64,000 nucleotides of DNA. Origin: Saprospiraceae bacterium (GTDB taxonomy: Bacteria > Bacteroidota > Bacteroidia > Chitinophagales > Saprospiraceae). A model generated the notes under the pieces. That model did no database searches. It saw only the letters and a list, made by a program, of their open reading frames with translations, and had not been told where the DNA came from. Positions 35,404-49,532 of this stretch are shown piece after piece. The translations under genes were made by a program, and so were the position numbers. The DNA lies in the NCBI GenBank assembly GCA_965220465.1, contig CBDCPZ010000025.1, positions 918,936 to 982,935 on the forward strand. Reading direction: 5' to 3'. How positions within the stretch are numbered: position 1 is the first letter of the stretch; the number at the start of each line of letters is the position of its first letter.

Positions 35404-36343
35404 GAAGTTGTTTTAAAATAAGCTTCTCCAAAAAGATGGGGATATATAAAAATGTTGCAAAAGCATTAAATTGTTAGTTCTCCCACAAACGATTTAAAAC
35501 CTGTTGCAACATGTATGTAAATTTATCTAAAAAGTTCATTACAAAAAATTTATTACCACACTTGAGCCAAACTAATCTTGGCAGAAAAACAAAAATTCCT
35601 TTATGGCGAATAATAAAAGCTATAATTTATCGGCTCAAAAGTGGTTGCCAATGGCGTGAAATTCCAATCGCTGCTTTTTGCAGCAGGACATTAATCACTT
35701 GGAATACAATGTATTATCACTTTAGAAAGTGGTCAAAAGATGGATCATGGAAACGGATGTGGGCAATTTTACTTTCGATTAATAAATCAAAGTTAGATAT
35801 GTCTTCTGTTCAATTAGATGGTTCACATACACCTGCCAAAAGAGGAGGTGAAGCGGTAGGGTATCAGAATCGGAAAAAATCAAAAACAACGAATGCATTG
35901 TTTTTAACGGATAAACAAGGAATTCCTTTAAGCATTTCTGACCCTATTGATGGAAACCATAATGACCTTTTTGACATTGAAATTTTCTTCGCCAAAATGT
36001 TATCCGATTTAGAACAATCGCAAATAGAAACAAACGGATTGTTTTTAAATGCAGACGCTGGTTTTGATAGTGAAGGATTTCGAGAAATCTGTTTTTCAAA
36101 CGGAATTATCGCTAATATTGATTTTAATAAACGAAATTCCAAAAACACTGACAATCAACCTCTTTTGGATGATTTACTTTATAAAGAACGTTTTTCAGTT
36201 GAGAGAACAAATGCTTGGATTGATGCTTTTAAAGCACTCCTGGTCAGATTTGAAACCAAATCTCAAACCTGGTTGAGCTTGCATTATTTAGCATTCTCTC
36301 TCATTCTGATTAGAATTTAAACATATCATTTTAAAACAACTTC
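35404..36343 (+). mobile_element. IS5-family (IS1031/IS427-group-like) insertion sequence, ~940 bp
   Basis: A 16-bp perfect terminal inverted repeat gaagttgttttaaaat (35404-35419) matches attttaaaacaacttc (36328-36343). It is flanked by AAT on both sides (35401-35403 and 36344-36346), a TNA-like target duplication. It encloses the transposase ORF. Confidence 0.65.
35511..36320 (+). CDS. IS5-family DDE transposase
   Basis: Has an N-terminal DUF4096-like region with WREIP and a DDE domain (LDGSHTPAKRGGEAVGYQ...ADAGFDSEGFRE...ERTNAW). Confidence 0.8.
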   Translation: MYVNLSKKFITKNLLPHLSQTNLGRKTKIPLWRIIKAIIYRLKSGCQWREIPIAAFCSRTLITWNTMYYHFRKWSKDGSWKRMWAILLSINKSKLDMSSVQLDGSHTPAKRGGEAVGYQNRKKSKTTNALFLTDKQGIPLSISDPIDGNHNDLFDIEIFFAKMLSDLEQSQIETNGLFLNADAGFDSEGFREICFSNGIIANIDFNKRNSKNTDNQPLLDDLLYKERFSVERTNAWIDAFKALLVRFETKSQTWLSLHYLAFSLILIRI

Positions 36344-36375: not shown

Positions 36376-36897
36376 TTAATTAGGTTCCTTAAACCAACCG
36401 CTGTACATCACATAATTATCAGCGATCCGTTTAATCGTATCTTTAAAAGCTTCCGGGCTTAATGGCTTTACTTTTTTGGCGGGGATTCCGGCGTAAATAT
36501 ATCCGGATTCAAGATGACTATTTTCTAAAACAACGGCTCCGGCAGCTATAAGGCAATTCGATTCTACAATTGCGTGGTCCATCACAATGGCGCCCATACC
36601 GATGAGAACATTGTCTTTGATCGTGCAACCATGCACAATAGCGCGATGTCCGATTGAAACATTATTTCCAATAAAAGTAGCTGCTTTTTGGTAAGTACAA
36701 TGGATAATCGCAGCATCCTGAATATTCACTTTATTGCCGATCCTGATGCTGTTGACATCTCCCCTGATGACGGACTGGAACCAAAAACTGCAATCGTCTC
36801 CGGCGATAACATCACCAACAATCGTGGCATTTTCGGCGAGGTAGCAATTTTTTCCAAAAACAGGAGAAACCCCTTTTACAGATTTGATTAAAGCCAA
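36376..36897 (-). CDS. Gamma-carbonic-anhydrase-like hexapeptide-repeat protein
   Basis: Has a left-handed beta-helix hexapeptide pattern and the His triad context of gamma-CA/PaaY/YrdA proteins. Confidence 0.75.
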   Translation of the reverse strand: MALIKSVKGVSPVFGKNCYLAENATIVGDVIAGDDCSFWFQSVIRGDVNSIRIGNKVNIQDAAIIHCTYQKAATFIGNNVSIGHRAIVHGCTIKDNVLIGMGAIVMDHAIVESNCLIAAGAVVLENSHLESGYIYAGIPAKKVKPLSPEAFKDTIKRIADNYVMYSGWFKEPN

Positions 36898-36902
36898 TTT
36901 TT

Positions 36903-37886
36903 CTATTTTGTTTTTGAAATGTGAAGTGGGTTGAGTGTATACCCTTCTTGTCGAAGTAACCTGATTACGCCGTTTTCGCCACCAAGATGACCCGCTCCAA
37001 CTGCAAAAAAAGTAGGTTTTTCTTTCATCATTCCTTGCATGACAGGAATCCAGTTGCGGTTTCGATTGACCAGCAAAACATCCTCATAATCTCCAATTCC
37101 TGCTTCTTCGCTTTTGAACATTTCCTGCATACCTTCAATATCCTCACTTAAATACATATCTATCATTTCTTGAAATTGACCTGAGCCTTCAGATTCTGCT
37201 TTCAGGCTTTCAACCAACATCTGAGCCTGATCCGTTAACGGAATACTATCAAAAATGCTGATCTGGTATTCTATCGTTTCGAGGCCAGCCATTTCCTTTT
37301 CCATTTGCTGAGCCATTTGCATAAATTCCATTTCATAAGAAACCAGCTCGCCATTTTGCAAACCATTTGGATCCATGTCTCCTGAAGCAAAAGTGGTTAA
37401 AAACATAGGTTTTACCCGATCGAGAATACCCGTCATCATCGCTGGAAGCCCTAACTCAGCAAATTTCTCTTTTACAAAATTATACTCTTCTTCGCTCAAC
37501 AAATCCTTAAGCGTCATGGCATCAGGCATCATCACTTTGCTAATCAATGTGAACATAGTGGACAAGTCGTTCATTTCTTCCATATTGATTTCAAAAGTGA
37601 TTCGTTCACTTTTATCAAAAGAAGCTTTGGTCTGATCGCTAAGAATAAAGTCATCTTTGTTAATAATGTGGATCGTTCCGTAAAGAAAGGATGGTTTGTC
37701 CAATCCTTTTCCGCTGATTTCCCAAAGCAGTGATTTCTCCAGGCCCGTTTCGATCGATTTTACGGAATCTTCTTGTACTTTTTCGGGAATTTCAATGGCC
37801 ACTTGTCCAATAGAAAAGTTGAAAGAAAGCACAAAAAGAAAAAGGGTAATAAATATTTTATTCATCATTTTATTTTTTTCAAGCAT
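36903..37886 (-). CDS. TraB/GumN-family protein
   Basis: Has a signal peptide and the GumN motifs (FLYGTIHIINKDDF; AVGAGHLGGENG). Confidence 0.7.
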   Translation of the reverse strand: MLEKNKMMNKIFITLFLFVLSFNFSIGQVAIEIPEKVQEDSVKSIETGLEKSLLWEISGKGLDKPSFLYGTIHIINKDDFILSDQTKASFDKSERITFEINMEEMNDLSTMFTLISKVMMPDAMTLKDLLSEEEYNFVKEKFAELGLPAMMTGILDRVKPMFLTTFASGDMDPNGLQNGELVSYEMEFMQMAQQMEKEMAGLETIEYQISIFDSIPLTDQAQMLVESLKAESEGSGQFQEMIDMYLSEDIEGMQEMFKSEEAGIGDYEDVLLVNRNRNWIPVMQGMMKEKPTFFAVGAGHLGGENGVIRLLRQEGYTLNPLHISKTK

Positions 37887-37942
37887 TAAAGTTATGGCTT
37901 ATTAAACCAAATAACTTGCATCAGGTTTTAAATAGTTTTAGT

Positions 37943-38078
37943 GTTGTTCAAAAAATTAAATCCTTTTTTCAATTTTAAATTAAGGCTCATCTTCTCTACC
38001 TTTCAGTCGTTCAACTTTCACCTAAATTTAAAATGTCGGATTTATTTTTTAACTGTTTTAATTATTTGCATCAAAATA
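37943..38078 (+). repeat. Intergenic repeat, copy A (~84% identical to copy B at 43566)
   Basis: Direct alignment of ttgttcaaaaaat...ctcatcttc...aaaatgtcggatttatt with the copy at 43566. The core runs 37943-38052 and the weaker tail overlaps the last codons of the 38058..39011 gene. Confidence 0.55.
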
Positions 38079-39011
38079 TTCTACAATACTCATCAACATT
38101 TCAATATCTTCAAAAAACTCCCGAACCAATTCAAAACTAACGTTTGATCTGAGTATAAAAGGTTCGAGGATATCCTTTGGTTCTGTAATTCCAATATAAA
38201 TTTGACTTTCAATAAAGGAAATATAAATTTCTTTCTTTGTCTCGTGGCGATATTTAACAATTGCGTTTTGCATATCTGTCGACAATAGGGAAGCGACATT
38301 AGCATTTTTTGTTGCAAAAGTCATGAATAATTCATTAAATCGCTCTTCCAAATGCTGGTCATATTCCTCTCCACCCTGCGTATTAAATGCTCTAATTGAA
38401 CGAGAAAGATACTGCTTAAATTCTCTCGGCAAAACAAGGATTTTTCCTCGAAGCGGTAAATTAAAAGTGGTGTGTAAAAAAATACCACGAAAAACATAAT
38501 TCAGTCGGTTTCTTACTTTCGAAAACTCTTTTACATTCAATTCGCACATTTCAAAATCCAGTTCTCCTATTTTGCCGCTTATAAAATCTTCTCCCTGATA
38601 AAATGGAGCCTCCGTTCCAAACAACTGGCTGGCTATAAAACGTTCCTTTTCGATACTTCGTTTGCTATCGTATTTTAAAGTGCCATAATTCAAGCCATCA
38701 TCAATAAAATCCAATATCAGGTTGACAACATGAGGTTTGAAGGTAGAGCGAAATCGCTGAATTCTATAAACCAGATAAGTTAAATACAAACCAATCGGTA
38801 TAAATAAAATCAAACTAACCACTAAAATGTTGAGATAAAATTGGATAAAAACTGCGGCGCCCAATAATAAAAATGAAACTACAAAAAGAAAAAGCAGGCG
38901 TTTCCGCCTTCGCTCCAAACGTAGTAATTCCGGATGGATGGTTTGATTATAAAAAAGGCGAAATTCTTTTATTCTTTTCACTTTAATTAATTGGTTCAAT
39001 TTCAGGCGCAA
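38058..39011 (-). CDS. Hypothetical two-TM membrane protein (possibly DUF3137-like)
   Basis: A 317-aa ORF with two N-terminal TM helices and then a soluble domain. The family assignment is uncertain. Confidence 0.4.
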   Translation of the reverse strand: MRLKLNQLIKVKRIKEFRLFYNQTIHPELLRLERRRKRLLFLFVVSFLLLGAAVFIQFYLNILVVSLILFIPIGLYLTYLVYRIQRFRSTFKPHVVNLILDFIDDGLNYGTLKYDSKRSIEKERFIASQLFGTEAPFYQGEDFISGKIGELDFEMCELNVKEFSKVRNRLNYVFRGIFLHTTFNLPLRGKILVLPREFKQYLSRSIRAFNTQGGEEYDQHLEERFNELFMTFATKNANVASLLSTDMQNAIVKYRHETKKEIYISFIESQIYIGITEPKDILEPFILRSNVSFELVREFFEDIEMLMSIVEYFDANN

Positions 39012-39494
39012 CTCGGATTAGCGAAGTAATTATTAACTTGTAGCTAATACCAATGAACAAAATATACAAAATGCTGGAAAAAGTGTGGAATAGAAATGAA
39101 AAACATGAGACACCGCGAATTTTGGAAAATCACAGAATAGCCTATAAAATAATTGATAATATTTTTTATCAAATAAGCTTAATAACTCGATTCATTACTC
39201 ATCACTTGCCTCCGGCGGCTGGCTTTTCCAGTCGATGAAAAGTCAGCAAAAATCCTTTTGCAATCACTATTTAATACCCCGTATCAAGCGGCGCAGAAAA
39301 TAAAATACATCTTCATCATTAATCTTAAAAATGAAAAACTTTTAACCGACCTTTTTTAGTTTTGGGCAACAATTCTTAGTGAAGATTTTGTGGGAAGGGT
39401 TGAGAAAGTAGCCATGTTTGAGCGAAGCGAGTTTGGCTATACGGCTAAATCAAGCTTAGGATTGTCCAAAAGGAAAAGCAGTCTTGATTTTTTG

Positions 39495-41315
39495 TTTCTT
39501 TTGTATCAAGCTCACCTTTCGCGTAAACATAATCAAGTTCTTTGAAAGTGCTTAATTTTAGTTTATGCTAGTAGAACACCTTGATGATTTACCTGTGTTG
39601 GGAAATCAAATACGTCGAATTGAATTATCTTCTATTTTGAATACCCACTTTGTTGACCACGGTCATTGGAAAGGGATTAGTGGAGGGAAACTTACATGTG
39701 GATGGTTGCTTTATATCCTTAGCCAAGGAGATCACCGGCTGAGTCATGTTGAGGATTGGGCGGAACTCCGCTTACGGAGCCTTGCAGCGATATTAGAGGA
39801 ACCGAAATTGCGAAGCTTGGATTTTTGTGATGATAGATTAGCTCGTCTTCTTGATCGATTCAGTGAAGATGATAAATGGACCGACTTTGAGAAGGCAATA
39901 GGAAAGAAACTATTGCAAGTATATCAATTAGATCGCGTTGAAGGAGAATCAAAAGCTGAAATAAAGGTAGTTCGTACCGATTCATTCAATGCTCCCCAAT
40001 ATCGAGATGAAGGTGAATTGTATCGACATGGTTATAGCAAACAACGTAGATCGGATCAACCCTTTTGTAAGGTTATGATATCTGCTTTAGACCCAATGGC
40101 AGTTCCCCTTGCAGTTGATATACTAAAAGGTAGTGGCCCAGATGTAGATCATTATCTATCTGTAATAAAACGGGTACAATCAATGCTTGAAAAAAGTGGC
40201 AATTTATATGTTGGAGATTCTCAACTGTGTAGTATGCCTAATCGTTTAGCGATACATTCGGCAGGAGATTACTATTTGTGCCCATTAAGTAAAAAACAAG
40301 TTTCAAAGGAAAAATTGCACAGTTACCTGGATCGAATAAAGGGAGCTATAAATAAATTACCAAGTATCTTTACTCAAACAGCATCAAAAAGGAAACCAGC
40401 CTATTTTTACGAACTGACCGAAACGATTAAAGCTCAAGAAAAAGGAATAATGTGGCAAGAACGTCGGATTCTAGTGTATTCTCCTCACTACGCACAGGGA
40501 TTGATCAAATCCTTTAATAATCGATTATCAGAATCTGAACAGAAAATACAAAACTTGGTGATTTCAAAACCTGGTCGTCGTAATCCTAAGACAATAAAAG
40601 ATTTATATGCTCGAGTTGCTGCAATTATTAAGCAATATAAAGTTGAAGATTGTTTCAAAGTAAAATGTAGTCAAACTCTGGAAAAGAGGCGAGTACAAAA
40701 ACATAAAAATCGTCCGGAAGAAATCCGACAAAAGATTACTTTATATCTAAAAATAAAAAGAAATGAAGATGTGATTGAACTGAAACAAAAAAGACTAGGC
40801 TGGCAATTATATGGAACAAATGTTCCACAAAACAAGTTTGAAACATCGGATTTGATAAAATCTTATCGGGACGAATATAGAATTGAACACTTGTTTGACT
40901 ATCTCATTAACCGGGATGTAGGGTTACTTCCTATATACTTAAAAAAAGAAGAAAGAATAAAAGGACTAATCCGTTTACTAAGTTTAGCCATGAGATTTTC
41001 AATGTTAATACAATATGATGTAAGAATAAAGTTATCAAAGAATGGAGGCCAACTTAAAGGAATTTATCCAGGAAATAAAAATCGGAAAACAGATAGGCCT
41101 ACAACCCCCATGATACTTCGTGCCTTCAAAGGTATCTCCGTAGTTTGGTTACAAACTGGTGAGGTAAATATTATTCAGTTGACACATTTGAAAGAAAACC
41201 AAAAAACGATTTTAAAATTGTTAGGAACACCTGATGTATACCAACGCACTTTAGAAGTTTTAAAAACTCATCCTAATTTACGCGAAACATGAGATCAAGA
41301 CAAAAGAATAACAAT
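39495..41315 (+). mobile_element. IS1634-family-like insertion sequence (ends approximate)
   Basis: The element is inferred from the transposase ORF. A candidate imperfect IR is gtttcttttgt (~39500-39511) matching acaaaagaataac (~41303-41315). Confidence 0.4.
39565..41292 (+). CDS. IS1634-family (IS4 superfamily) DDE transposase
   Basis: A 575-aa ORF. The N-terminal DUF4277-like region (VEHLDDLPVL...ISGGKLTCGWLLYILSQGDHRLSHVEDWAE) and its overall size and architecture match IS1634 transposases. Confidence 0.65.
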   Translation: MLVEHLDDLPVLGNQIRRIELSSILNTHFVDHGHWKGISGGKLTCGWLLYILSQGDHRLSHVEDWAELRLRSLAAILEEPKLRSLDFCDDRLARLLDRFSEDDKWTDFEKAIGKKLLQVYQLDRVEGESKAEIKVVRTDSFNAPQYRDEGELYRHGYSKQRRSDQPFCKVMISALDPMAVPLAVDILKGSGPDVDHYLSVIKRVQSMLEKSGNLYVGDSQLCSMPNRLAIHSAGDYYLCPLSKKQVSKEKLHSYLDRIKGAINKLPSIFTQTASKRKPAYFYELTETIKAQEKGIMWQERRILVYSPHYAQGLIKSFNNRLSESEQKIQNLVISKPGRRNPKTIKDLYARVAAIIKQYKVEDCFKVKCSQTLEKRRVQKHKNRPEEIRQKITLYLKIKRNEDVIELKQKRLGWQLYGTNVPQNKFETSDLIKSYRDEYRIEHLFDYLINRDVGLLPIYLKKEERIKGLIRLLSLAMRFSMLIQYDVRIKLSKNGGQLKGIYPGNKNRKTDRPTTPMILRAFKGISVVWLQTGEVNIIQLTHLKENQKTILKLLGTPDVYQRTLEVLKTHPNLRET

Positions 41316-41417
41316 GAACTGATAATCAAAATATTACACCCAGCTTTTAAAAAAAAGATAAAAGCAATCCGAAGTTTCAAGATGATTAAAATTCAGGATA
41401 ACTCAGGTTAAGGATAA

Positions 41418-41909
41418 TTAGTTTTGCTCCTTTTCATACTTTTCAATAAAGTTGGAAACAACTCTGTTGATTATATCTTTGAGATAGGCCTTTTCTTCTT
41501 TGGCTATATCTTTCAATTTAGCCAGTTTTTCCTTTTCAACGACAAAGGTTACGCGTTTTTTAGTCGGAACATCTACCTCAACAGTTTCCATGTCTTCAGT
41601 ATGTCGAATGAGCGCGTCAAGTCCTGATAATCGACGCAATCTTCTTTGCCTTCTTTGTGGTGGTGCTTGTGCTTGTTTATTGCTTTTTGCCTTTTCCTCA
41701 CTCTCTTCGATGGTATCTGACAATGCTTGTTCAAACAAGGTATCCAGGTCAGAGGTGAAGCTTTTGGAAGTACGTTTTTTAACAGTTGAGGCAACTTTTT
41801 TAACTTCCTTTTTAGTTTTATCGAGCAAAGGGCTTTCTTCCTGGAAGGCTTCTTCTGTAGCCATTCCAAACAAACTTTCTAATCCTACTGTAAATTTTTT
41901 CTTACTCAC
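41418..41909 (-). CDS. Small ribbon-helix-helix ParB-like partition protein (ParG/omega-type) with ParB-like N-terminal LG-R peptides
   Basis: A 163-aa ORF. The N-terminus (KKKFTVGLESLFG) and RRLSGLDALI resemble the ParA-activating N-peptide of ParB. The C-terminus (KRVTFVVEKEKLAKLKDIAKEEKAYLKDIINRVVSNFIEKY) fits an RHH fold. It is directly downstream of parA. Confidence 0.5.
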   Translation of the reverse strand: MSKKKFTVGLESLFGMATEEAFQEESPLLDKTKKEVKKVASTVKKRTSKSFTSDLDTLFEQALSDTIEESEEKAKSNKQAQAPPQRRQRRLRRLSGLDALIRHTEDMETVEVDVPTKKRVTFVVEKEKLAKLKDIAKEEKAYLKDIINRVVSNFIEKYEKEQN

Positions 41910-41958
41910 GCCCTGCTTAGGTTTTTTATTAAAATCGATATTTTAGTATCAAAAGCAT

Positions 41959-42720
41959 TTATACTACAACAGCTTCTGTACGTTCAATAACTTCACGGCA
42001 AAGGGCAAGATAATCTTCAGCTCCATTGCTATTTCTGCTGTATTCAAAGATATCTTTTCGTTGAGCAGGGGCTTCAGCCAAAGCCACATTATCCCGAATG
42101 AGGGTATTGAAAACTTTTTCTCCAAAATACTTTTTGATCGTTTCTACAACGTCCCGATTCAGCACCTTTCGAGCATCATACATGGTTGCGATTACTCCAC
42201 CAATTTCCAGCTTTTTATTCAACCTAAAACGTACCTTATCAATGATCTGCTTGATTTTTGCCAAGCCTTGCAAAGCCAAAAATTCAGTTTGTAAAGGAAT
42301 GTAAACAAAATCACTGCTCGTCAAGGCATTTAAAGTCAACAGACCTAATGATGGTGGACAATCAATAATAATATAATCATACTCCTCAATCACCGTTTCG
42401 AATAATTCCCGCAAGATGTATTCTCTTCCGGCCTCATTGATTAATTCCATTTCAGCGCTTGACAAATCGAGCGAAGAGGTGATCACATCAAATCCTTCCC
42501 GATAGGGAAACGGAACCAACTCAGATTCGCCTCTGAGTGCTTCATAAATCGTAGCATTTTGTCTTGGAATTCCTAAAGAAAGTGTGAGATTTGCCTGTGG
42601 ATCGAGATCAATCAATAAAACTTTACGACCGAGTTCAACAAGTCCGGCACCAATATTAATTGCACTTGTAGTTTTACCTACTCCACCTTTGTGGTTTAAC
42701 AAAGAGATTATTTTTCCCAT
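41959..42720 (-). CDS. parA: ParA/Soj-family partition ATPase
   Basis: A 253-aa ORF with a deviant Walker A (KGGVGKTT) and the motifs DLDPQ and YIPLQTEFLALQGL. Confidence 0.85.
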   Translation of the reverse strand: MGKIISLLNHKGGVGKTTSAINIGAGLVELGRKVLLIDLDPQANLTLSLGIPRQNATIYEALRGESELVPFPYREGFDVITSSLDLSSAEMELINEAGREYILRELFETVIEEYDYIIIDCPPSLGLLTLNALTSSDFVYIPLQTEFLALQGLAKIKQIIDKVRFRLNKKLEIGGVIATMYDARKVLNRDVVETIKKYFGEKVFNTLIRDNVALAEAPAQRKDIFEYSRNSNGAEDYLALCREVIERTEAVVV

Positions 42721-42824
42721 TTCGTATGTTTACTTATTCTTTGGTTGTGAAAGTAATAATTATTAGCCAATATTACGACAATCGTTTGCAAAATAAATGT
42801 TTTTAATATAAATTAAAATGATGC

Positions 42825-42862
42825 GTTGAATTATTTTTAATTATCATGTGTTTTAATTCAAC
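42825..42862. promoter_or_regulatory. 9-bp inverted repeat GTTGAATTA-N20-TAATTCAAC in the parA upstream region (candidate operator/centromere)
   Basis: The repeat is seen directly in the sequence. It lies in the 272-bp AT-rich intergenic region between parA (-) and the GNAT gene (+). Direct CCAATATT repeats occur at 42767 and 42918. Confidence 0.35.
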
Positions 42863-42992
42863 AATTGAGCCAAAATTATAATATGTAGGTAAGGTAGTTT
42901 GACGAGATTTTTAATAACCAATATTTTAACATATCGCAAAAACAAGACAATCAACTTTAGCTTTTTTATTCTTTTTTTCCAAAATATAAAAT

Positions 42993-44043: not shown

Positions 44044-46536
44044 ATGGCCACAAAAAATACAACCAAAGGAAAGAAACAACTTTCTTTTAAAATAGGCATC
44101 AATGACGAGCGTATCCCAAAACTTGTAGGAGTTTTTTGTTTGTTTCTTGCATTATATTTATTTATTGCTTTTTCCTCTTATTTGTTCTCCTGGCAAATTG
44201 ACCAGGACCGGGTGTTGCAGCATTCCTTAGGACTTCTTTTACAGGGAGATGTCGAAATGGCAAATTGGTTGGGTAGGCTCGGAGCTATCGTTTCCAATAT
44301 GTTTTTTTACTGGGGATTTGGCTTACCTTCTTTCATTTTCGTTTTTGTTTTAACGGTCGTTGGTTTGGGTAGTATTCGACGTGTTCCTTTCCAAAAACAT
44401 ACTAGTATCTTGTGGTCTTCCTTTTGGCTGCTTTTGTTCTCTTCTATATTGTTAGAATTCCTTTTTCAAAATGCTGAATTTCCATGGGGAGGTGCTTTTG
44501 GTGAAGAAGTATCTACCTGGCTGACCAATTTTTTGGGGACAATCGGTCTCGCGATATTGTTTGTTTTCATCGGTATTGGCTTAGTCACCTGGTTTACGAA
44601 TCCTAATTTCAATGAACTTACTTTCAATGGAGTGGTAAAAGAGGTCAAATATTTTTTTGAGGATTTGATAAGCGGGCGACGACGTTTTCAAAAAAAAGAA
44701 CAACCTCAAACTTCATCCTTGACTACTTTGAAGCCTCGAAATCAATCCTTTGAAGGCGGTAAGGAAGAACCCGATGGAAATGCTGCAAGCGATTCTGAAA
44801 CAGCTAAAAGCAGCAATGATGAATTAACTGAATTGGACGAAAAAGGTCAATTGCGATTTAAACTTGGTGATAAAAAAAGAGAAAAACCTCAATCACTCAA
44901 AAAGGGGGAAGGCGAATTAGAAATTGAAGATCCAGTTGAAACGGAAATTTCGGTTGAAACGGATCCTCTTGCCGGTAAGCCTGACATGACCATTGTTGCT
45001 GAAAACTCGGATCATGGCGAACCTTATGACCCCACATTAGAATTGTCTTCGTATGAAAATCCTGTCGTCTCTTTACTCAATGAATATTCTGAAGGAAAGG
45101 TAGAAATTGATCGCGCTGAACTTGAACAAAACAAAGATCAGATCATCGAAACATTGCTCAATTACAAAATTGAGATCACAAAAATAAAAGCGACAATTGG
45201 CCCTACAGTGACGCTTTATGAGATTGTTCCAGCACCTGGTGTTCGAATTTCAAGGATCAAAAATCTGGAGGATGACATTGCGTTGAGCCTTGCAGCTCTT
45301 GGAATTCGGATTATCGCTCCGATTCCTGGAAAAGGAACCATCGGTATTGAGGTGCCAAACAAAAACAAACAAACAGTTTCCTTAAAAGAAGTCCTCGTCC
45401 ACGAAAAGTTCAAAAGGGCTAAAATGGACCTTCCGATTGGTTTTGGAAAAACGATTTCAAATGAGGTTTTTGTTGCTGATTTAGCAAAAATGCCTCACTT
45501 GCTTATCGCCGGAGCCACCGGTCAAGGGAAGTCTGTCGGGATTAATGTAGTATTGATGTCGCTTTTATATAAGAAACATCCATCTCAAATCAAATTCGTT
45601 TTAATTGATCCGAAAAAAGTGGAGCTTTTCCCTTACAGCAAAATTGAAAACCACTTTCTGGCTTACCTTCCGGGACTGGATGAACCAATCGTTACCGACA
45701 CGACGAAGGTGGTTCACACGCTCAATTCGTTGACTATTGAGATGGAAACGCGTTATGATTTGCTCAAAAAAGCGCAAGCGAGAAATATCCGTGAGTACAA
45801 CGAAAAATTTATTGCCAGAAAACTAAACCCGAATAATGGACATCGGTTTTTACCTTTTATCATTTTGGTCATTGACGAATTTGCGGATTTGATCATGACA
45901 GCTGGTAAAGAAATTGAATTGCCGATCGGAAGGCTAGCTCAGCTTTCTCGTGCTGTTGGAATTCATCTGATCATTGCTACACAGCGTCCATCTGTCAATA
46001 TTATCACGGGAGTGATTAAAGCTAATTTCCCTGCACGTATTGCGTTTAAAGTAACTGCAAAAGTAGATTCGCGAACCATCCTCGATACTGGTGGAGCTGA
46101 TCGACTGATTGGTCGCGGAGATATGTTACTTTCCTTTGGCAGCGATATTATCCGTTTACAATGCGCGTTTGTAGACACACCTGAAGTTGAAAGAGTTATT
46201 GATTTTATATCACAACAGAAAGGTTACCCTATGCCCTATTTCCTTCCTGAATTCCATGGTGATGAAGAAACACATTCCGGCGGTTCCGTTAATTTTAGTG
46301 ATCTGGATGAAAATCTGGATGATGCTGCTCGTTTGGTCGTTTCCAACCAACATGGTTCCACTTCAATGATCCAGCGCCGATTGAAGTTAGGTTATAACAG
46401 AGCTGGTCGAATAATGGATCAGCTGGAATCACTTGGAATTGTCGGACCAAGTGAAGGAAGCAAAGCACGTGAAGTTTTATTTTATGATGAAATAGAATTG
46501 GAACGGTTTTTGGAGGACCTAAAAAATAGGAAATAG
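44044..46536 (+). CDS. ftsK: DNA translocase FtsK/SpoIIIE
   Basis: An 830-aa ORF with N-terminal TM helices, a linker, a motor domain (Walker A GATGQGKS; LIIATQRPS) and a C-terminal gamma winged-helix domain. Confidence 0.9.
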   Translation: MATKNTTKGKKQLSFKIGINDERIPKLVGVFCLFLALYLFIAFSSYLFSWQIDQDRVLQHSLGLLLQGDVEMANWLGRLGAIVSNMFFYWGFGLPSFIFVFVLTVVGLGSIRRVPFQKHTSILWSSFWLLLFSSILLEFLFQNAEFPWGGAFGEEVSTWLTNFLGTIGLAILFVFIGIGLVTWFTNPNFNELTFNGVVKEVKYFFEDLISGRRRFQKKEQPQTSSLTTLKPRNQSFEGGKEEPDGNAASDSETAKSSNDELTELDEKGQLRFKLGDKKREKPQSLKKGEGELEIEDPVETEISVETDPLAGKPDMTIVAENSDHGEPYDPTLELSSYENPVVSLLNEYSEGKVEIDRAELEQNKDQIIETLLNYKIEITKIKATIGPTVTLYEIVPAPGVRISRIKNLEDDIALSLAALGIRIIAPIPGKGTIGIEVPNKNKQTVSLKEVLVHEKFKRAKMDLPIGFGKTISNEVFVADLAKMPHLLIAGATGQGKSVGINVVLMSLLYKKHPSQIKFVLIDPKKVELFPYSKIENHFLAYLPGLDEPIVTDTTKVVHTLNSLTIEMETRYDLLKKAQARNIREYNEKFIARKLNPNNGHRFLPFIILVIDEFADLIMTAGKEIELPIGRLAQLSRAVGIHLIIATQRPSVNIITGVIKANFPARIAFKVTAKVDSRTILDTGGADRLIGRGDMLLSFGSDIIRLQCAFVDTPEVERVIDFISQQKGYPMPYFLPEFHGDEETHSGGSVNFSDLDENLDDAARLVVSNQHGSTSMIQRRLKLGYNRAGRIMDQLESLGIVGPSEGSKAREVLFYDEIELERFLEDLKNRK

Positions 46537-46639: not shown

Positions 46640-48277
46640 TCATTTTACAAAATACATATTTACCTCTCCGATATTCTTAGCCATAATTTTTCCCCTTGCT
46701 TCACAAGTGTATTCATCTTTCACTAATTGATAAGTAGCTTCTGAAATATTGATTTTACCTGATTCTCCATTACTCTCCATACGACTGGCTATATTGACTG
46801 TATTCCCCCAAATATCATAAGCAAATTTTTTATCGCCCACTACACCTGCCACAACAGGTCCGCTATGAATGCCAATCCGCATCTGCCAGTAAGCCTGTCC
46901 GCCAGCTTTTTTTTCTGCAATTCGCTTATTAATAAATGCATTGAACTCTAAACCAACTCTGATAGCGCAATAAGAGTGTTGCTCATCTGGTATGGGTAAA
47001 CCTGAAACACACATGTAAGAATCACCAATCGTTTTTATTTTTTCCATTCCTTGTTTTTCGATGATGGCATCAAAGTTTCGAAAGCAATAATTGAGTTCTT
47101 CAATTAGTTGTTCAGGACTCATCGAAGATGCTACTTTTGTAAAGCCGCTAAAATCAGTAAATAAAACAGTGGCGTTGTCGTAGCGTTTTGGACTAGCGTA
47201 GCCTTTTTCCTTAAGTTCCTGTGCCGTTTCTTCAGGCAGAATGTTGAGCAAAAGTTGATCTGATTTTATACGTTCTGCAGTAATTTCTTCTTTCTGATGC
47301 TCGATAGCTTCGTTTTTTTGACTGAGTTGCTGGTTGAGTTTTCTTGAGTACAACAAACCTACTGCTACGGCTAAAATGATGAAGATCATCAGGGCTCCCA
47401 AACCGTAAAAAAATTTTACCCTTTCTTTTTGTTTGTCTAATTCCAACACATTAATTTCTTTGTCTCGGAGCAGGATGTCATTTTGTTGTTTTTCTGCAGT
47501 TAATTGGGCTTCTTTATTTTGTATATCGAGTTGTTGAAGTGCTTCCTTTTGGTGGAGCATCGTCACTTCTTGTTCCTGTTGAGATGCGATCAGCCGTTGT
47601 TGGGTGAGTTCTAGTTCTTGCTTCGCTCTTTGAGTTTCTAATTCCTGTGTTTGAAGTTTACTGGCTCTGATTTCGTTTTCTTTTTGAAGTAGTTCCTTTT
47701 CTTTTTGTTCGGCAATCAATTGAGCTTCTTTATTTTGCAATGCTAATTGTTGATTCTCTGCTTCCACCTTTAATTGGGAAATGGTGAGCTCTTGTATGTC
47801 TTCATTTATCATGAAAAGTTTGATCTGTTTTTCAGTGCGTTCCAGGTCAATTTGTTGTTGCAGCAATTGTTGCTGACGAATTTTTTCTTCAAACGCAAAA
47901 GAATCCCGCAATTGTAAATGTTTTTGAAAATAATCAAGAGCAGTGTCATATTCATAAAGCCCCGAATAAATAAGGGCCGTGGTGTAATAAACATCGGTGA
48001 GCAAGGCATCATTTTGATTGACTTTTGCGATGGCTTCTGATTGATTAGAATATTCAAGGGCATTATGCAGATCCAGCTTTTTAAGGTAAACTGTTGCTAA
48101 CAATTGATTGATTTCATCAACTCCTACGTGGTCATATTTGTTTTTAATATTTTTTGACTCTAACAAATAATCAATACTTGTTGCAAAATCTCCAAGGTTG
48201 TAATAAGCAATTCCAATATTAGTGGTCAGTATCACTTTGTCAGAATGATCTTTTTCCTCAAGCAGTTTGAGAGCCAT
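46640..48277 (-). pseudogene. C-terminal portion of an IS630-disrupted gene for a TPR/coiled-coil membrane class-III adenylate/guanylate cyclase
   Basis: The cyclase motifs are FTDFSGFT, GDSYMCVSG and RIGIHSGPVVAGVVG. The reading frame continues upstream without a start codon for 49 codons until it reaches the IS630 end at ~48425. Confidence 0.7.
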
Positions 48278-48425: not shown

Positions 48426-49532
48426 TACCTTTAATTAATTGTTATGGGAATGTACAGACGTACCACCCACTGTCCTGAAATTCAGAGAGAGTAGCGATTT
48501 TAAATCTGACTTATAGTCCTTGATATTTTCTAAAAAATCAATTATTTCATTTTTGAAATCATCATATTTTTCAAAATAAATCGAATTAATTATTTTCTGT
48601 TTTAAGTAGCCCCATAAGCGTTCAATTAAATTAAGGTTGGGGGAATAAGGGGGTAAGAAAATAAATTTTATCCTTTTATTTTCGGCCCATTCCTTTAGCA
48701 CTCTATTTCGATTATATTTTGCATTATCGCAAATGAAATAGATGGTCCCTTTTCTATGCTTTTTTAGTAAGGATTGACAAAGCCTTTGGGTAGATTGAGC
48801 ATTTACACTTTTGGTAATATCATAAACCAATTTTGTTGAGTCTGTTGCATTAATTGCTGCATTGATATTCACTCTCTTCCTGCCACTGTTTGCTTGTATC
48901 TCGAAACTTTTTCCTCGCTTTATCCATCCTCTGCTTTTTATGGTGTTGTGAGTCGGATGACAGCCGTCAGAGTAATAAACCACGGCTTGTCCAGCTTTTT
49001 GTTCTTCTAATATGGCTGGTAATACTTCTTCTAAAAATTCAACCTGCGCCTGTTCATCCGCTTTACCCGGAACTACTTTTGTTTCTTTATATTCATAACC
49101 CAGGCGATGAAGCAAGGGAATCAATCCTGTTGGAGTATATTTAACATCAAATTCTTCCTCTATAAATTGACATATAAATTTTGAATCTGAGTAGCAATTC
49201 TCTTCTAAATGTTCGTCCAGTAGTGTTAATTGTTCTTCTGATAATTTTCCTGAATATGGAATGTAACCATCCTCAATATATTTTTTAAGACCTACTTTTT
49301 TATAGGCCTTTTCATATCTGTAAATCGTATTATCATCTATGCCCAATGCCAATTCTACCATTTTTACTTCATAGCCCTGATCTAACATTATTATTACTGT
49401 TACTTTTATGTAACGACGACGATGCAAGCCTGGTTTCTGCTGAATTTTTCGCAGTGCTTTTAATTCTTCGGATGTTAACTCTATTTTCACAACGCTATTA
49501 TACGAATTTTCCCAATCTTCTTAATTTTGGGT
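48426..49532 (-). mobile_element. IS630-family (Tc1/mariner-like) insertion sequence with TA target-site duplication
   Basis: Imperfect TIRs tacctttaattaatt (left) and aattttgggta (right) are each flanked by TA (48424-25 and 49533-34). The enclosed transposase is on the minus strand. Confidence 0.7.
48435..49490 (-). CDS. IS630-family DDE transposase (GTG start)
   Basis: A 351-aa ORF with an N-terminal HTH and DDE_3 domain (YYSDGCHPTH...FICDNAKYNRN...FLPPYSPNLNLIERLW). Confidence 0.8.
   Translation of the reverse strand: MKIELTSEELKALRKIQQKPGLHRRRYIKVTVIIMLDQGYEVKMVELALGIDDNTIYRYEKAYKKVGLKKYIEDGYIPYSGKLSEEQLTLLDEHLEENCYSDSKFICQFIEEEFDVKYTPTGLIPLLHRLGYEYKETKVVPGKADEQAQVEFLEEVLPAILEEQKAGQAVVYYSDGCHPTHNTIKSRGWIKRGKSFEIQANSGRKRVNINAAINATDSTKLVYDITKSVNAQSTQRLCQSLLKKHRKGTIYFICDNAKYNRNRVLKEWAENKRIKFIFLPPYSPNLNLIERLWGYLKQKIINSIYFEKYDDFKNEIIDFLENIKDYKSDLKSLLSLNFRTVGGTSVHSHNN

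Follow-up and report, generated by a model that had tools for sequence, protein, structure and literature searches.

Partition by ParA ATPases is known almost entirely from chromosomes, where the partner is the CTPase clamp ParB, and from plasmids, where it is ParG, omega or ParB; on a chromosome, parA is normally followed by the gene for a ParB of ~300 amino acids (aa). Type Ib partition systems (ParF/ParG of TP228, delta/omega of pSM19035, PrgP/PrgO of pCF10) pair a small ParA that lacks an N-terminal DNA-binding domain with a small, dimeric ribbon-helix-helix (RHH) protein that binds the centromere and whose flexible N-terminal tail activates the ATPase, from operons that are normally autoregulated at sites just upstream. 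In the archaeal SegA/SegB system of the Sulfolobales, a chromosomal ParA-type ATPase works with a small, site-specific, RHH-type partner whose N-terminus is disordered, and SegB binds near its own operon (PMC8682754, PMC12139799). Here we examine a parA gene and its small partner gene in a 64-kb stretch of DNA (64,000 nucleotides, hereafter the window) from a Saprospiraceae bacterium (contig CBDCPZ010000025.1). The pair appears to be a two-gene ParA partition or positioning module of type Ib design, derived from plasmids and now fixed in the chromosomes of the Saprospirales, a reading to which we assign a probability of roughly 0.6. Its basis in silico is the gene pair itself, the RHH fold of the partner, the conservation of the partner's peptides and of a pocket in ParA, homology to plasmid systems, a chromosomal location, and a spread across the order.

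A first-pass annotation of the window had proposed a ParA followed by a partner far smaller than a ParB, and both open reading frames (ORFs) are confirmed (Table 1). The partner's frame begins 49 nt downstream of parA, the median intergenic gap among the related loci being 58 nt, and the upstream neighbours, divergent from parA, are a RimL-like GNAT gene followed by ftsK (44044-46536), which does lie 1.3 kb from parA as that annotation had it. The partner is a real gene: 349 relatives at E<=1e-3 were found among 5.8 billion proteins, and clustering of the family at 50% identity gives 488 representatives, of which the best-scoring 150 span 126-225 aa. All of these relatives are labelled 'hypothetical' in their source databases, and no family in Pfam or NCBIfam matches the protein above its cut-off. 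In 57 of 76 loci the start codon of the small gene is other than ATG (GTG in 33 and TTG in 24; ATG in 16), a conserved preference for weak initiation that perhaps holds the adaptor low relative to ParA.

The ATPase is compact, AAA_31 spanning residues 3-173 with no additional domain and no N-terminal helix-turn-helix (HTH) domain; the NCBIfam models ParA_partition, RepA and PrgP match it below their cut-offs, and the residues examined in Walker A and motif 2 are kept. Its best match in the Protein Data Bank (PDB) is Myxococcus xanthus ParA (8RAY, 1.6e-63), and its similarity to Soj (1e-53 to 1e-63) is far stronger than that to the type Ib ATPases ParF and delta (~1e-13). To call it Soj-like, as the first-pass annotation did, is nonetheless imprecise. 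Against M. xanthus ParA and Thermus thermophilus Soj its identity is 44-46%, against the ParAs of Bacteroidota plasmids 56-64%, and it carries the signature IRDNVALAEAP where Soj has IPRNVRLAEAP, both of which place it in a plasmid-type clade. This signature (window 42079-42111, ParA residues 204-214, TLIRDNVALAE) recurs as IRDN[IV]ALAEAP in 78 of 78 family ParAs and in five of seven plasmid ParAs, the remainder having a close variant; Soj-type ParAs read IPRNVRL[AS]EAP, with a conserved Pro where the family carries Arg.

The site at which a ParB peptide docks on ParA can be followed residue by residue. In M. xanthus the motif through which ParB binds ParA runs L11-G-R13-G-L15-x-x-L18-I19; its four hydrophobic residues enter a cleft at the interface of the ParA dimer (V116, L150, L152, L155, L187, L192), and R13, which is needed for ATPase stimulation, contacts Y81, E82, D110 and E117 of ParA (PMC12462528). 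The equivalents of Y81, E82, D110, E117, L150, L152, L155 and L192 are identical in 77-78 of the 78 family ParAs, and the changes are confined to V116, which becomes Met, and L187, which becomes Lys. The docking site for a ParB-type peptide is therefore intact. In the numbering of the window ParA the cleft is lined by M91, L125, L127, L130 and L167, and Y59, E60, D85 and E92 would lie near K4 or K49 of a docked partner peptide.

An alignment of 107 members of the partner family, with residue frequencies computed at each position, reveals four conserved islands in an otherwise variable sequence. The last of these (residues 116-160), K-K-R-V-T-F-V-F-D-K-x-K-L-x-K-L-K-x-I-A-K-x-E-K-x-Y-L-K-D-I-I, opens with a strand, K118-R119-V120-T121-F122, that is 97-100% conserved and is followed by two helices. 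Several independent lines agree that island 4 is an RHH domain. The family profile finds ParG (1p94, E=0.012) as its top match in the PDB and the RHH protein ORF56 (0.031) next; Pfam ParG is matched weakly by 31 of the 107 members and RHH_3 by 18; a PHROG described as 'Arc-like repressor' matches the partner at 7.6e-5; AlphaFold2 predicts an extended segment and then two helices, with 10-residue block means of the predicted local distance difference test (pLDDT) at 93-97 over residues 121-160; and Foldseek returns ORF56, ParG, CopG and Arc, every one an RHH protein, as the best structural matches in the PDB. The partner does not belong to Pfam ParG (PF09274) at its gathering score, the best member E-value being 7.5e-4, and the window protein itself has no ParG match and reaches 14.3 bits against RHH_3, below the 21.6-bit cut-off. 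Profile search, AlphaFold2 and Foldseek thus bear out the RHH pattern that had first been read from the letters, and we take the C-terminus to be a ParG/Arc-type RHH domain, predicted in silico to bind DNA. An identity with TraA/TraB of the CTnDOT type (DUF3408), which the first-pass annotation had suggested checking, was rejected: the partner has no DUF3408 match at E<=1, and the flanking genes are housekeeping or unrelated.

The three remaining islands lie in the N-terminal arm. Island 1 covers residues 1-15, M-S-K-K-K-F-T-x-G-L-E-S-L-F-G, with K4, G9, L10 and F14 invariant; in peptide 2, K49, F51 and D54 are invariant and L55 and L58 are 99% conserved, and the two have the common pattern K-x-F-T-x-[GD]-L-[DE]-[ST]-L-F. 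In peptide 3, G96, D98, L100 and T104 are invariant. The first-pass annotation had quoted two ParB-like peptides and a C-terminal string, all of which are present in the protein, and had overlooked the second island, K49-x-FTSDLDSLFE, so that the conserved peptides number three. Hydrophobic residues recur at i, i+4, i+7 and i+8 in peptide 1 (F6/L10/L13/F14) and in peptide 2 (F51/L55/L58/F59), the same spacing as L11/L15/L18/I19 of M. xanthus ParB (PMC12462528). AlphaFold2 gives the N-terminal 115 residues low pLDDT, apart from short helices that coincide with the three peptides (among them residues 51-76 at peptide 2 and 97-103 at peptide 3), and this arm is probably disordered. Peptide 3 holds the core GLDALI, which is identical to the core string of many ParB N-termini (compare the logo described in PMC12462528). 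At its core, then, the earlier picture of a ParA joined to a small, ParG/omega-like RHH protein with ParB-like peptides passes every in silico test available.

Table 1. Coordinates of the module, its parts and neighbouring features in the window.
Feature	Position	Strand	Remarks
DUF3137 membrane protein gene	38058..39011	-	Pfam 6.4e-25; next conserved same-strand gene
Window-specific insertion with IS1634-family element	39104..41412	+	transposase 39565-41292, NCBIfam transpos_IS1634 1e-66
Partner (adaptor) gene	41418..41909	-	163 aa; GTG start at 41907-41909; three peptides and C-terminal RHH domain
RHH domain (predicted DNA binding and dimerisation)	41430..41564	-	partner residues 116-160
Peptide 3	41598..41648	-	residues 88-104, QRRLRRLSGLDALIRHT; Arg/Lys-rich run, then [LV]-S-G-L-D-A-L-I-R-x-T
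Peptide 2	41730..41765	-	residues 49-60, KSFTSDLDTLFE; K-N-F-T-S-D-L-D-S-L-F-E
Peptide 1	41865..41903	-	residues 3-15, KKKFTVGLESLFG; consensus K-K-K-F-T-x-G-L-E-S-L-F-G
parA	41959..42720	-	253-aa deviant-Walker-A ATPase, plasmid-type (small-partner) clade; Pfam AAA_31 1.4e-56
Inverted repeat GTAATA-N12-TATTAC	42753..42776	-	between proximal promoter-like box and parA ATG; candidate operator
Promoter-like box TTATTTTG	42789..42796	-	one mismatch from the Bacteroidota -7 box TAnnTTTG
Conserved 28-nt box ACATATTA-N5-TTGGCTCAATTGTTG	42859..42886	-	139-166 nt upstream of parA ATG

The plasmid affinities of the ParA extend to the partner. The closest plasmid ParAs come from Flavobacterium, Tenacibaculum, Adhaeribacter and Bacteroides, with others on Lawsonia and Paracaedimonas plasmids, and all six whose downstream region is covered are followed by a 'hypothetical protein' of 77-102 aa; the Lawsonia partner ORF starts just ahead of the record end. 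Named pairs are H5G30_RS00045/40 of Flavobacterium pA5BP1 and BT_RS24255/50 of Bacteroides thetaiotaomicron p5482. Five of the downstream proteins (85-102 aa) consist of M-A-K-K-N-F-S-G-G-L-x-S-L-L, a short linker and an RHH domain reading (E)TRATFIV-EDLLEK-KAIAYWDR-LIKD. Their single N-terminal peptide, with the consensus M-x-K-K-x-F-[ST]-G-G-L-x-S-L-[LI], is homologous to peptide 1, and peptide 2 is absent from them. BLASTP aligns the window partner with a plasmid partner at the N-terminus (1e-4) and at the C-terminus (5e-9), and hhalign joins the window family to the plasmid partners with 98.3% probability (E=1.2e-14). Among type Ib proteins, ParG is the best match to the RHH domain in both the PDB and Pfam, PrgO weakly matches the plasmid partners, and PrgP the ParA.

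These plasmid pairs belong to a family that has gone without a name. It numbers 3958 clusters, mostly from short contigs, and has no Pfam family; the clusters with a source name are all 'hypothetical' or 'uncharacterised' bar one evident misannotation, and our literature search found no paper on the family or on the partition of pA5BP1 or p5482. Like the pair in the window, they combine a homologous ParA carrying IRDN[IV]ALAEAP with a homologous partner in the same gene order and spacing; unlike it, they sit beside rep genes on small replicons and their 85-102-aa partner has one peptide, whereas the partner here is a 163-aa protein with three, encoded on a chromosome and fixed across an order. 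From these comparisons we read the module as a domesticated, enlarged version of a type Ib-like partition module from this unnamed family of Bacteroidota plasmids, and we infer that the tripling of the peptide is a derived feature of the chromosomal form, a gain in valency. A single relative of the plasmid-type partner was found on viral contigs (IMG/VR IMGVR_UViG_3300029446_000108, L095 3204-3485, 52% identical to the pA5BP1 protein), and the plasmid-type module may also travel on phage-plasmid-like elements. Obvious repeat arrays stand upstream of parA on several of the plasmids: 16 tandem CCCTGTTA units on the Paracaedimonas plasmid CP008938 (L093 ~1671-1800), a ~45-nt palindrome of AGTAATA and TAAGTAAAC units on pA5BP1 (L088 ~2409-2455), and TAGTAT(T/A)TT triplets on p5482 (L089 ~2408-2450). 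These arrays are likely to be centromeres or operators of the plasmid systems.

When GTDB was scanned with each species represented by a single genome, the pair turned up in at least 160 of them, and the 80 loci retained belong without exception to Saprospiraceae, Lewinellaceae or Phaeodactylibacter. The parA gene stands directly upstream of the partner in 78 of 81 loci, the remaining three being cut by a contig end, and among members ParA is 78-96% identical to that of the window and the partner 35-85%. The context is chromosomal, as on a 6.19-Mb contig of ERZ25072999 (with dnaK, rpmF, trpS and metK near) and on a 5.76-Mb contig of GCA_041392805.1, and the carriers include a cultured species, Flavilitoribacter nigricans (GCA_002646595.1). 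The partner matches nothing among the 72,556 plasmids of PLSDB, the G+C content of the module equals that of its surroundings, and the flanks inspected, including those on the two large contigs and in F. nigricans, contain no tra, rep or integrase genes. The pair is therefore a fixed chromosomal feature across the order Saprospirales.

This distribution bears directly on the idea that the pair is a recent relic of a plasmid or conjugative element that integrated beside an insertion sequence (IS), one of three options that the first-pass annotation had left standing, the others being chromosome segregation and a Bacteroidota-specific positioning system. Such a relic would account for the plasmid type of both ParA and partner, and for the presence in the window of three different transposase genes, of which one adjoins the module. 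A recent relic would not, however, be expected in so many species with conserved flanking genes, with both genes intact under strong constraint, in flanks so free of mobility genes and at uniform G+C, with a partner missing from PLSDB. The IS itself, whose 32-nt terminal inverted repeats lie at ~39496-39527 and ~41277-41308, is absent from the closest relative (L002), homology to which ends at 41413 and restarts at 39103. Its absence there, together with the gene order shared with the 6.19-Mb genome, marks the IS1634-family element as a later insertion that split a conserved order; the element that had been described as bounding the module is thus present but secondary, and is no module boundary. 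A plasmid-type origin survives from the relic reading; its recency is effectively excluded by the distribution across the order, and the whole strikes us as highly improbable. Of the three options, the Bacteroidota-specific system comes closest to what we find.

If the partner stands in for ParB, the question is whether a ParB is also present. None is encoded in the 64-kb window, and a canonical ParB, the neighbour that the first-pass annotation had thought worth looking for, stands beside the pair neither there nor in any of the 81 loci. The partner has no ParBc match; the box II/ENxQR motif is absent from six-frame translations of the window and the 81 loci (823 kb together); tblastn with Spo0J and an approximate ParB consensus found no match in the same sequences; and the 16-bp parS palindrome TGTTNCACGTGAAACA has no match in them at <=2 mismatches. 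The literature searched, including the supplement of PMC9304909, holds nothing on whether Saprospirales also have ParB. Compared with canonical ParABS (Soj/Spo0J), the module is alike in being chromosomal, in having the second gene downstream of parA, in the L-x-x-G-L-x-x-L-[IF] spacing and GLDALI core of its peptides and in the pocket that would receive them, and it differs in that the partner has no ParB/Srx CTPase (GERRxRA) domain, no HTH and no box II, and in that those 823 kb hold no parS. We advance only tentatively, as a suggestion more doubtful than the module reading itself, that Saprospirales may have replaced ParB-parS altogether, their chromosome being segregated by a captured plasmid-type ParA and an RHH adaptor; the triplicated docking peptides would then make up for the missing CTP-driven spreading of ParB.

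From the features above we infer how a partition module of this kind might act: that the partner binds DNA at a particular target, that its peptides contact ParA and stimulate its ATPase, that ParA binds the nucleoid, and that the cargo is DNA. The partner would dimerise through its C-terminal RHH domain and bind a specific DNA site, probably beside its own operon, where it would also, probably, repress transcription. The three amphipathic peptides of its flexible arm would dock as short helices in the cleft of the ParA-ATP dimer that ParB uses and, with the conserved Lys or Arg just upstream of each, stimulate ATP hydrolysis, as the tail does in type Ib systems. ParA-ATP dimers spread over the nucleoid would thereby be turned over locally, and the protein-DNA complex would follow the resulting ParA gradient as a diffusion ratchet, in the manner of type Ib plasmid partition. 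In the canonical case, activation of the ATPase needs both sites of the ParA dimer to be occupied and a high local concentration of peptide, which ParB attains by clamp closure and loading (PMC12462528). Three peptides per chain make six per RHH dimer, against two per dimer in the plasmid relatives, and this higher valency could let a small RHH complex that does not spread occupy the two sites of one ParA dimer, or act on several dimers together.

The region upstream of parA was searched for a candidate operator or centromere. The first-pass annotation had pointed to a 9-bp inverted repeat (42825-42833/42854-42862) and to direct CCAATATT repeats as a possible operator or centromere. Both exist, but in this 272-bp spacer of 22% G+C they stand at chance level: dinucleotide shuffles contain an equal inverted repeat in 38% of cases and an equal direct repeat in 73%, and the inverted repeat is retained only in the closest relative, L002. 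We therefore rejected them as operator or centromere. The 14-nt core of a conserved 28-nt box (Table 1) occurs exactly in L001, on the 6.19-Mb contig, and in seven other genome loci, and as a variant, TTGGCTTATTTGTTG, in L078, always upstream of parA; metagenome records, 241 million in number, contain six matches, each of them likewise upstream of a family parA. The partners in the box-bearing genome loci are 36-85% identical to that of the window, with values down to 36-45%. Copies of the box lie at 8983-9010 in L001 and 5024-5051 in L002, among others, and in L082-L087. A looser form is found in ~7 more loci by a search that was partly circular. The box often overlaps a TAnnTTTG-like -7 box, and so might serve as a distal promoter, as an operator or as a centromere.

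Nearer the gene, the inverted repeat GTAATA-N12-TATTAC is the sole match to its pattern in the window (0.06 expected) and is equivalently placed in five loci of one clade (L004, L005, L007, L008 and L009); AGTAATA/TATTACT units recur upstream of parA on pA5BP1 and on Tenacibaculum and Adhaeribacter plasmids, a recurrence that is suggestive only. The box TTATTTTG just upstream of it departs at a single position from TAnnTTTG, the consensus of the Bacteroidota -7 promoter box; many relatives have an exact TAnnTTTG at the equivalent place, ~70-85 nt ahead of the ATG, and we regard TTATTTTG as the putative proximal promoter of parA, for which a sigma-70 scan was uninformative. Other candidates were set aside: the boxes CACTA, TTCAC and TACTTT near the ATG are also common ahead of other genes, enriched only ~2-fold, and are probably generic promoter or leader features, and a conserved hairpin in the 5' untranslated region is weakly supported at best, with a mean z of only -0.96 over 78 loci and +0.89 in the window, whose own leader is unstructured. 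Many loci do have a stable hairpin, of unrelated sequence and ~20-95 nt upstream of parA, between the promoter-like box and the ATG (L004, L007, L011, L039, L041, L045, L052, L074, L075, L078), with z-scores down to -6.5. Rfam and tRNA scans of the sequences found nothing.

Several observations weigh against a partition module, and the first set concerns this target. Most loci lack the 28-nt box, the 73 upstream regions yielded no shared iterated motif, and no centromere was identified in them; yet an RHH strand that is nearly invariant predicts a conserved target. That no iterated centromere was found also sets the module apart from type Ib systems, and the same result would suit a mainly transcriptional role, in which the partner is an RHH repressor and ParA its nucleotide-dependent co-repressor, the segregation function having been lost after capture. 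The RHH domain has repressors (Arc-like PHROGs, CopG, ORF56) as well as ParG among its closest matches, possible operators are found in the interval from the promoter-like box to the ATG, and the prevalence of non-ATG starts might suit a tightly titrated regulator. A repressor, however, needs neither three invariant peptides of docking type nor a conserved ATPase with a conserved pocket, and it would hardly explain a ParA kept so nearly identical across the order. In the type Ib systems ParF/ParG and delta/omega, moreover, autoregulation coexists with partition, which counts against setting the two apart, and we consider a mainly regulatory role quite unlikely.

The second set concerns the contacts made by the two proteins. 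The peptides resemble ParB as a conserved pattern, with no statistically supported alignment, and 30-residue queries built on them match no ParB in the PDB. Set against the LG-R/K-GLxxLI motif of ParABS, they keep the hydrophobic residues and the Gly but have D/S/V/T where the motif has its central basic residue: the Arg/Lys equivalent to R13 is missing, and position i+2 holds D/S/V in the first peptide and S in the second. A basic residue is found elsewhere, as an invariant Lys at i-2 (K4, K49) and as the Arg-rich run ahead of peptide 3. Compared with type Ib systems, the tail peptide resembles that of ParB and not that of ParG, and it is triplicated. On the ParA side, the non-specific DNA-binding patch of Soj consists of four basic residues (PMC6393308), two of which are lost in 78 of 78 family ParAs while the other two are still basic; the lost positions, T. 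thermophilus R208 and R211 (M. xanthus R235 and R238, the latter equivalent to Bacillus subtilis R218), have become D/N and A/S/T. With these two Soj arginines gone, binding of ParA to the nucleoid cannot be assumed. The same change is present in the plasmid relatives, and since these include bona fide small plasmids it is a signature of the clade and no proof that DNA binding has been lost.

The missing patch arginines could be read as a sign that the cargo is something other than DNA, for instance a membrane or envelope complex with the DUF3137 or the TraB/PrgY/GumN protein. The partner would then be an adaptor in the style of McdA/McdB or ParC/ParP, its RHH domain serving for dimerisation or nucleoid anchoring, and it is indeed mostly disordered with multiple short motifs, as the adaptors of cargo-positioning ParA systems are. 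A DUF3137 gene on the same strand comes next, within ~0.5 kb downstream, in ~33 of 81 loci (~40%), and a TraB/PrgY/GumN gene is often adjacent, as it is to the module in F. nigricans. In more than half of the loci, though, DUF3137 is absent from the neighbourhood, and the extreme conservation of the K-R-V-T-F strand points to base-specific reading of DNA. The homologous plasmid modules, moreover, stand beside replication genes and have no DUF3137, which indicates that the ancestral cargo was DNA. A non-DNA cargo is in our view unlikely, and a DNA-partitioning module of type Ib design remains the reading we prefer.

The wider neighbourhood combines conserved and mobile genes. The order parA, small gene, DUF3137, TraB/PrgY/GumN and hexapeptide transferase is common to the window and L001, and the conserved downstream trio lies at 36376-39011 (-) in the window and 10579-12986 in L001, with corresponding neighbour sequence at 8069-9001 in L096. 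Three unrelated transposase genes within 14 kb mark the stretch as rich in insertion sequences: besides that of the IS1634-family element (39565-41292, +), they are an IS4/IS5-like gene with DUF4096 and DDE_Tnp_1 (35511-36320, +) and one with DDE_3 and HTH_33 (48435-49490, -). Beyond ftsK, a gene at 46640-48277 (-) encodes 545 aa with N-terminal TPR repeats, a long Gln/Glu-rich segment resembling a coiled coil and one transmembrane-like stretch, and its product ends in a class III adenylate/guanylate cyclase domain (Pfam 6.7e-58).

Set beside the systems with which we began, the design of the module is known, being that of type Ib; what is new is its chromosomal, order-wide fixation and the triplication of its docking peptide. 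With archaeal SegAB it has in common architecture and chromosomal setting only: SegB, structures of which are in the PDB (PMC8682754), is not among the partner's PDB profile matches at E<=10, and it belongs to archaea and has a single N-terminal region where the partner here has three repeated peptides. The two forms make up a large protein family with neither name nor Pfam model, of ~4000 clusters in the plasmid form and ~500 in the chromosomal form, and the cultured F. nigricans makes the system testable. As a natural multivalent ParA-activating peptide, the partner's arm would bear on the question raised in PMC12462528 of how many peptides a ParA dimer needs, and at what local concentration. 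In the Saprospirales, which are abundant in the environment and in wastewater, an entire order has retained a ParA/RHH pair of plasmid type on its chromosome. Should ParB prove absent from these genomes, this would amount to a wholesale replacement of the bacterial centromere-binding protein; the order would then be the first bacterial lineage with a type Ib-style centromere-binding protein for its chromosome, and its module a bacterial counterpart of archaeal SegAB.

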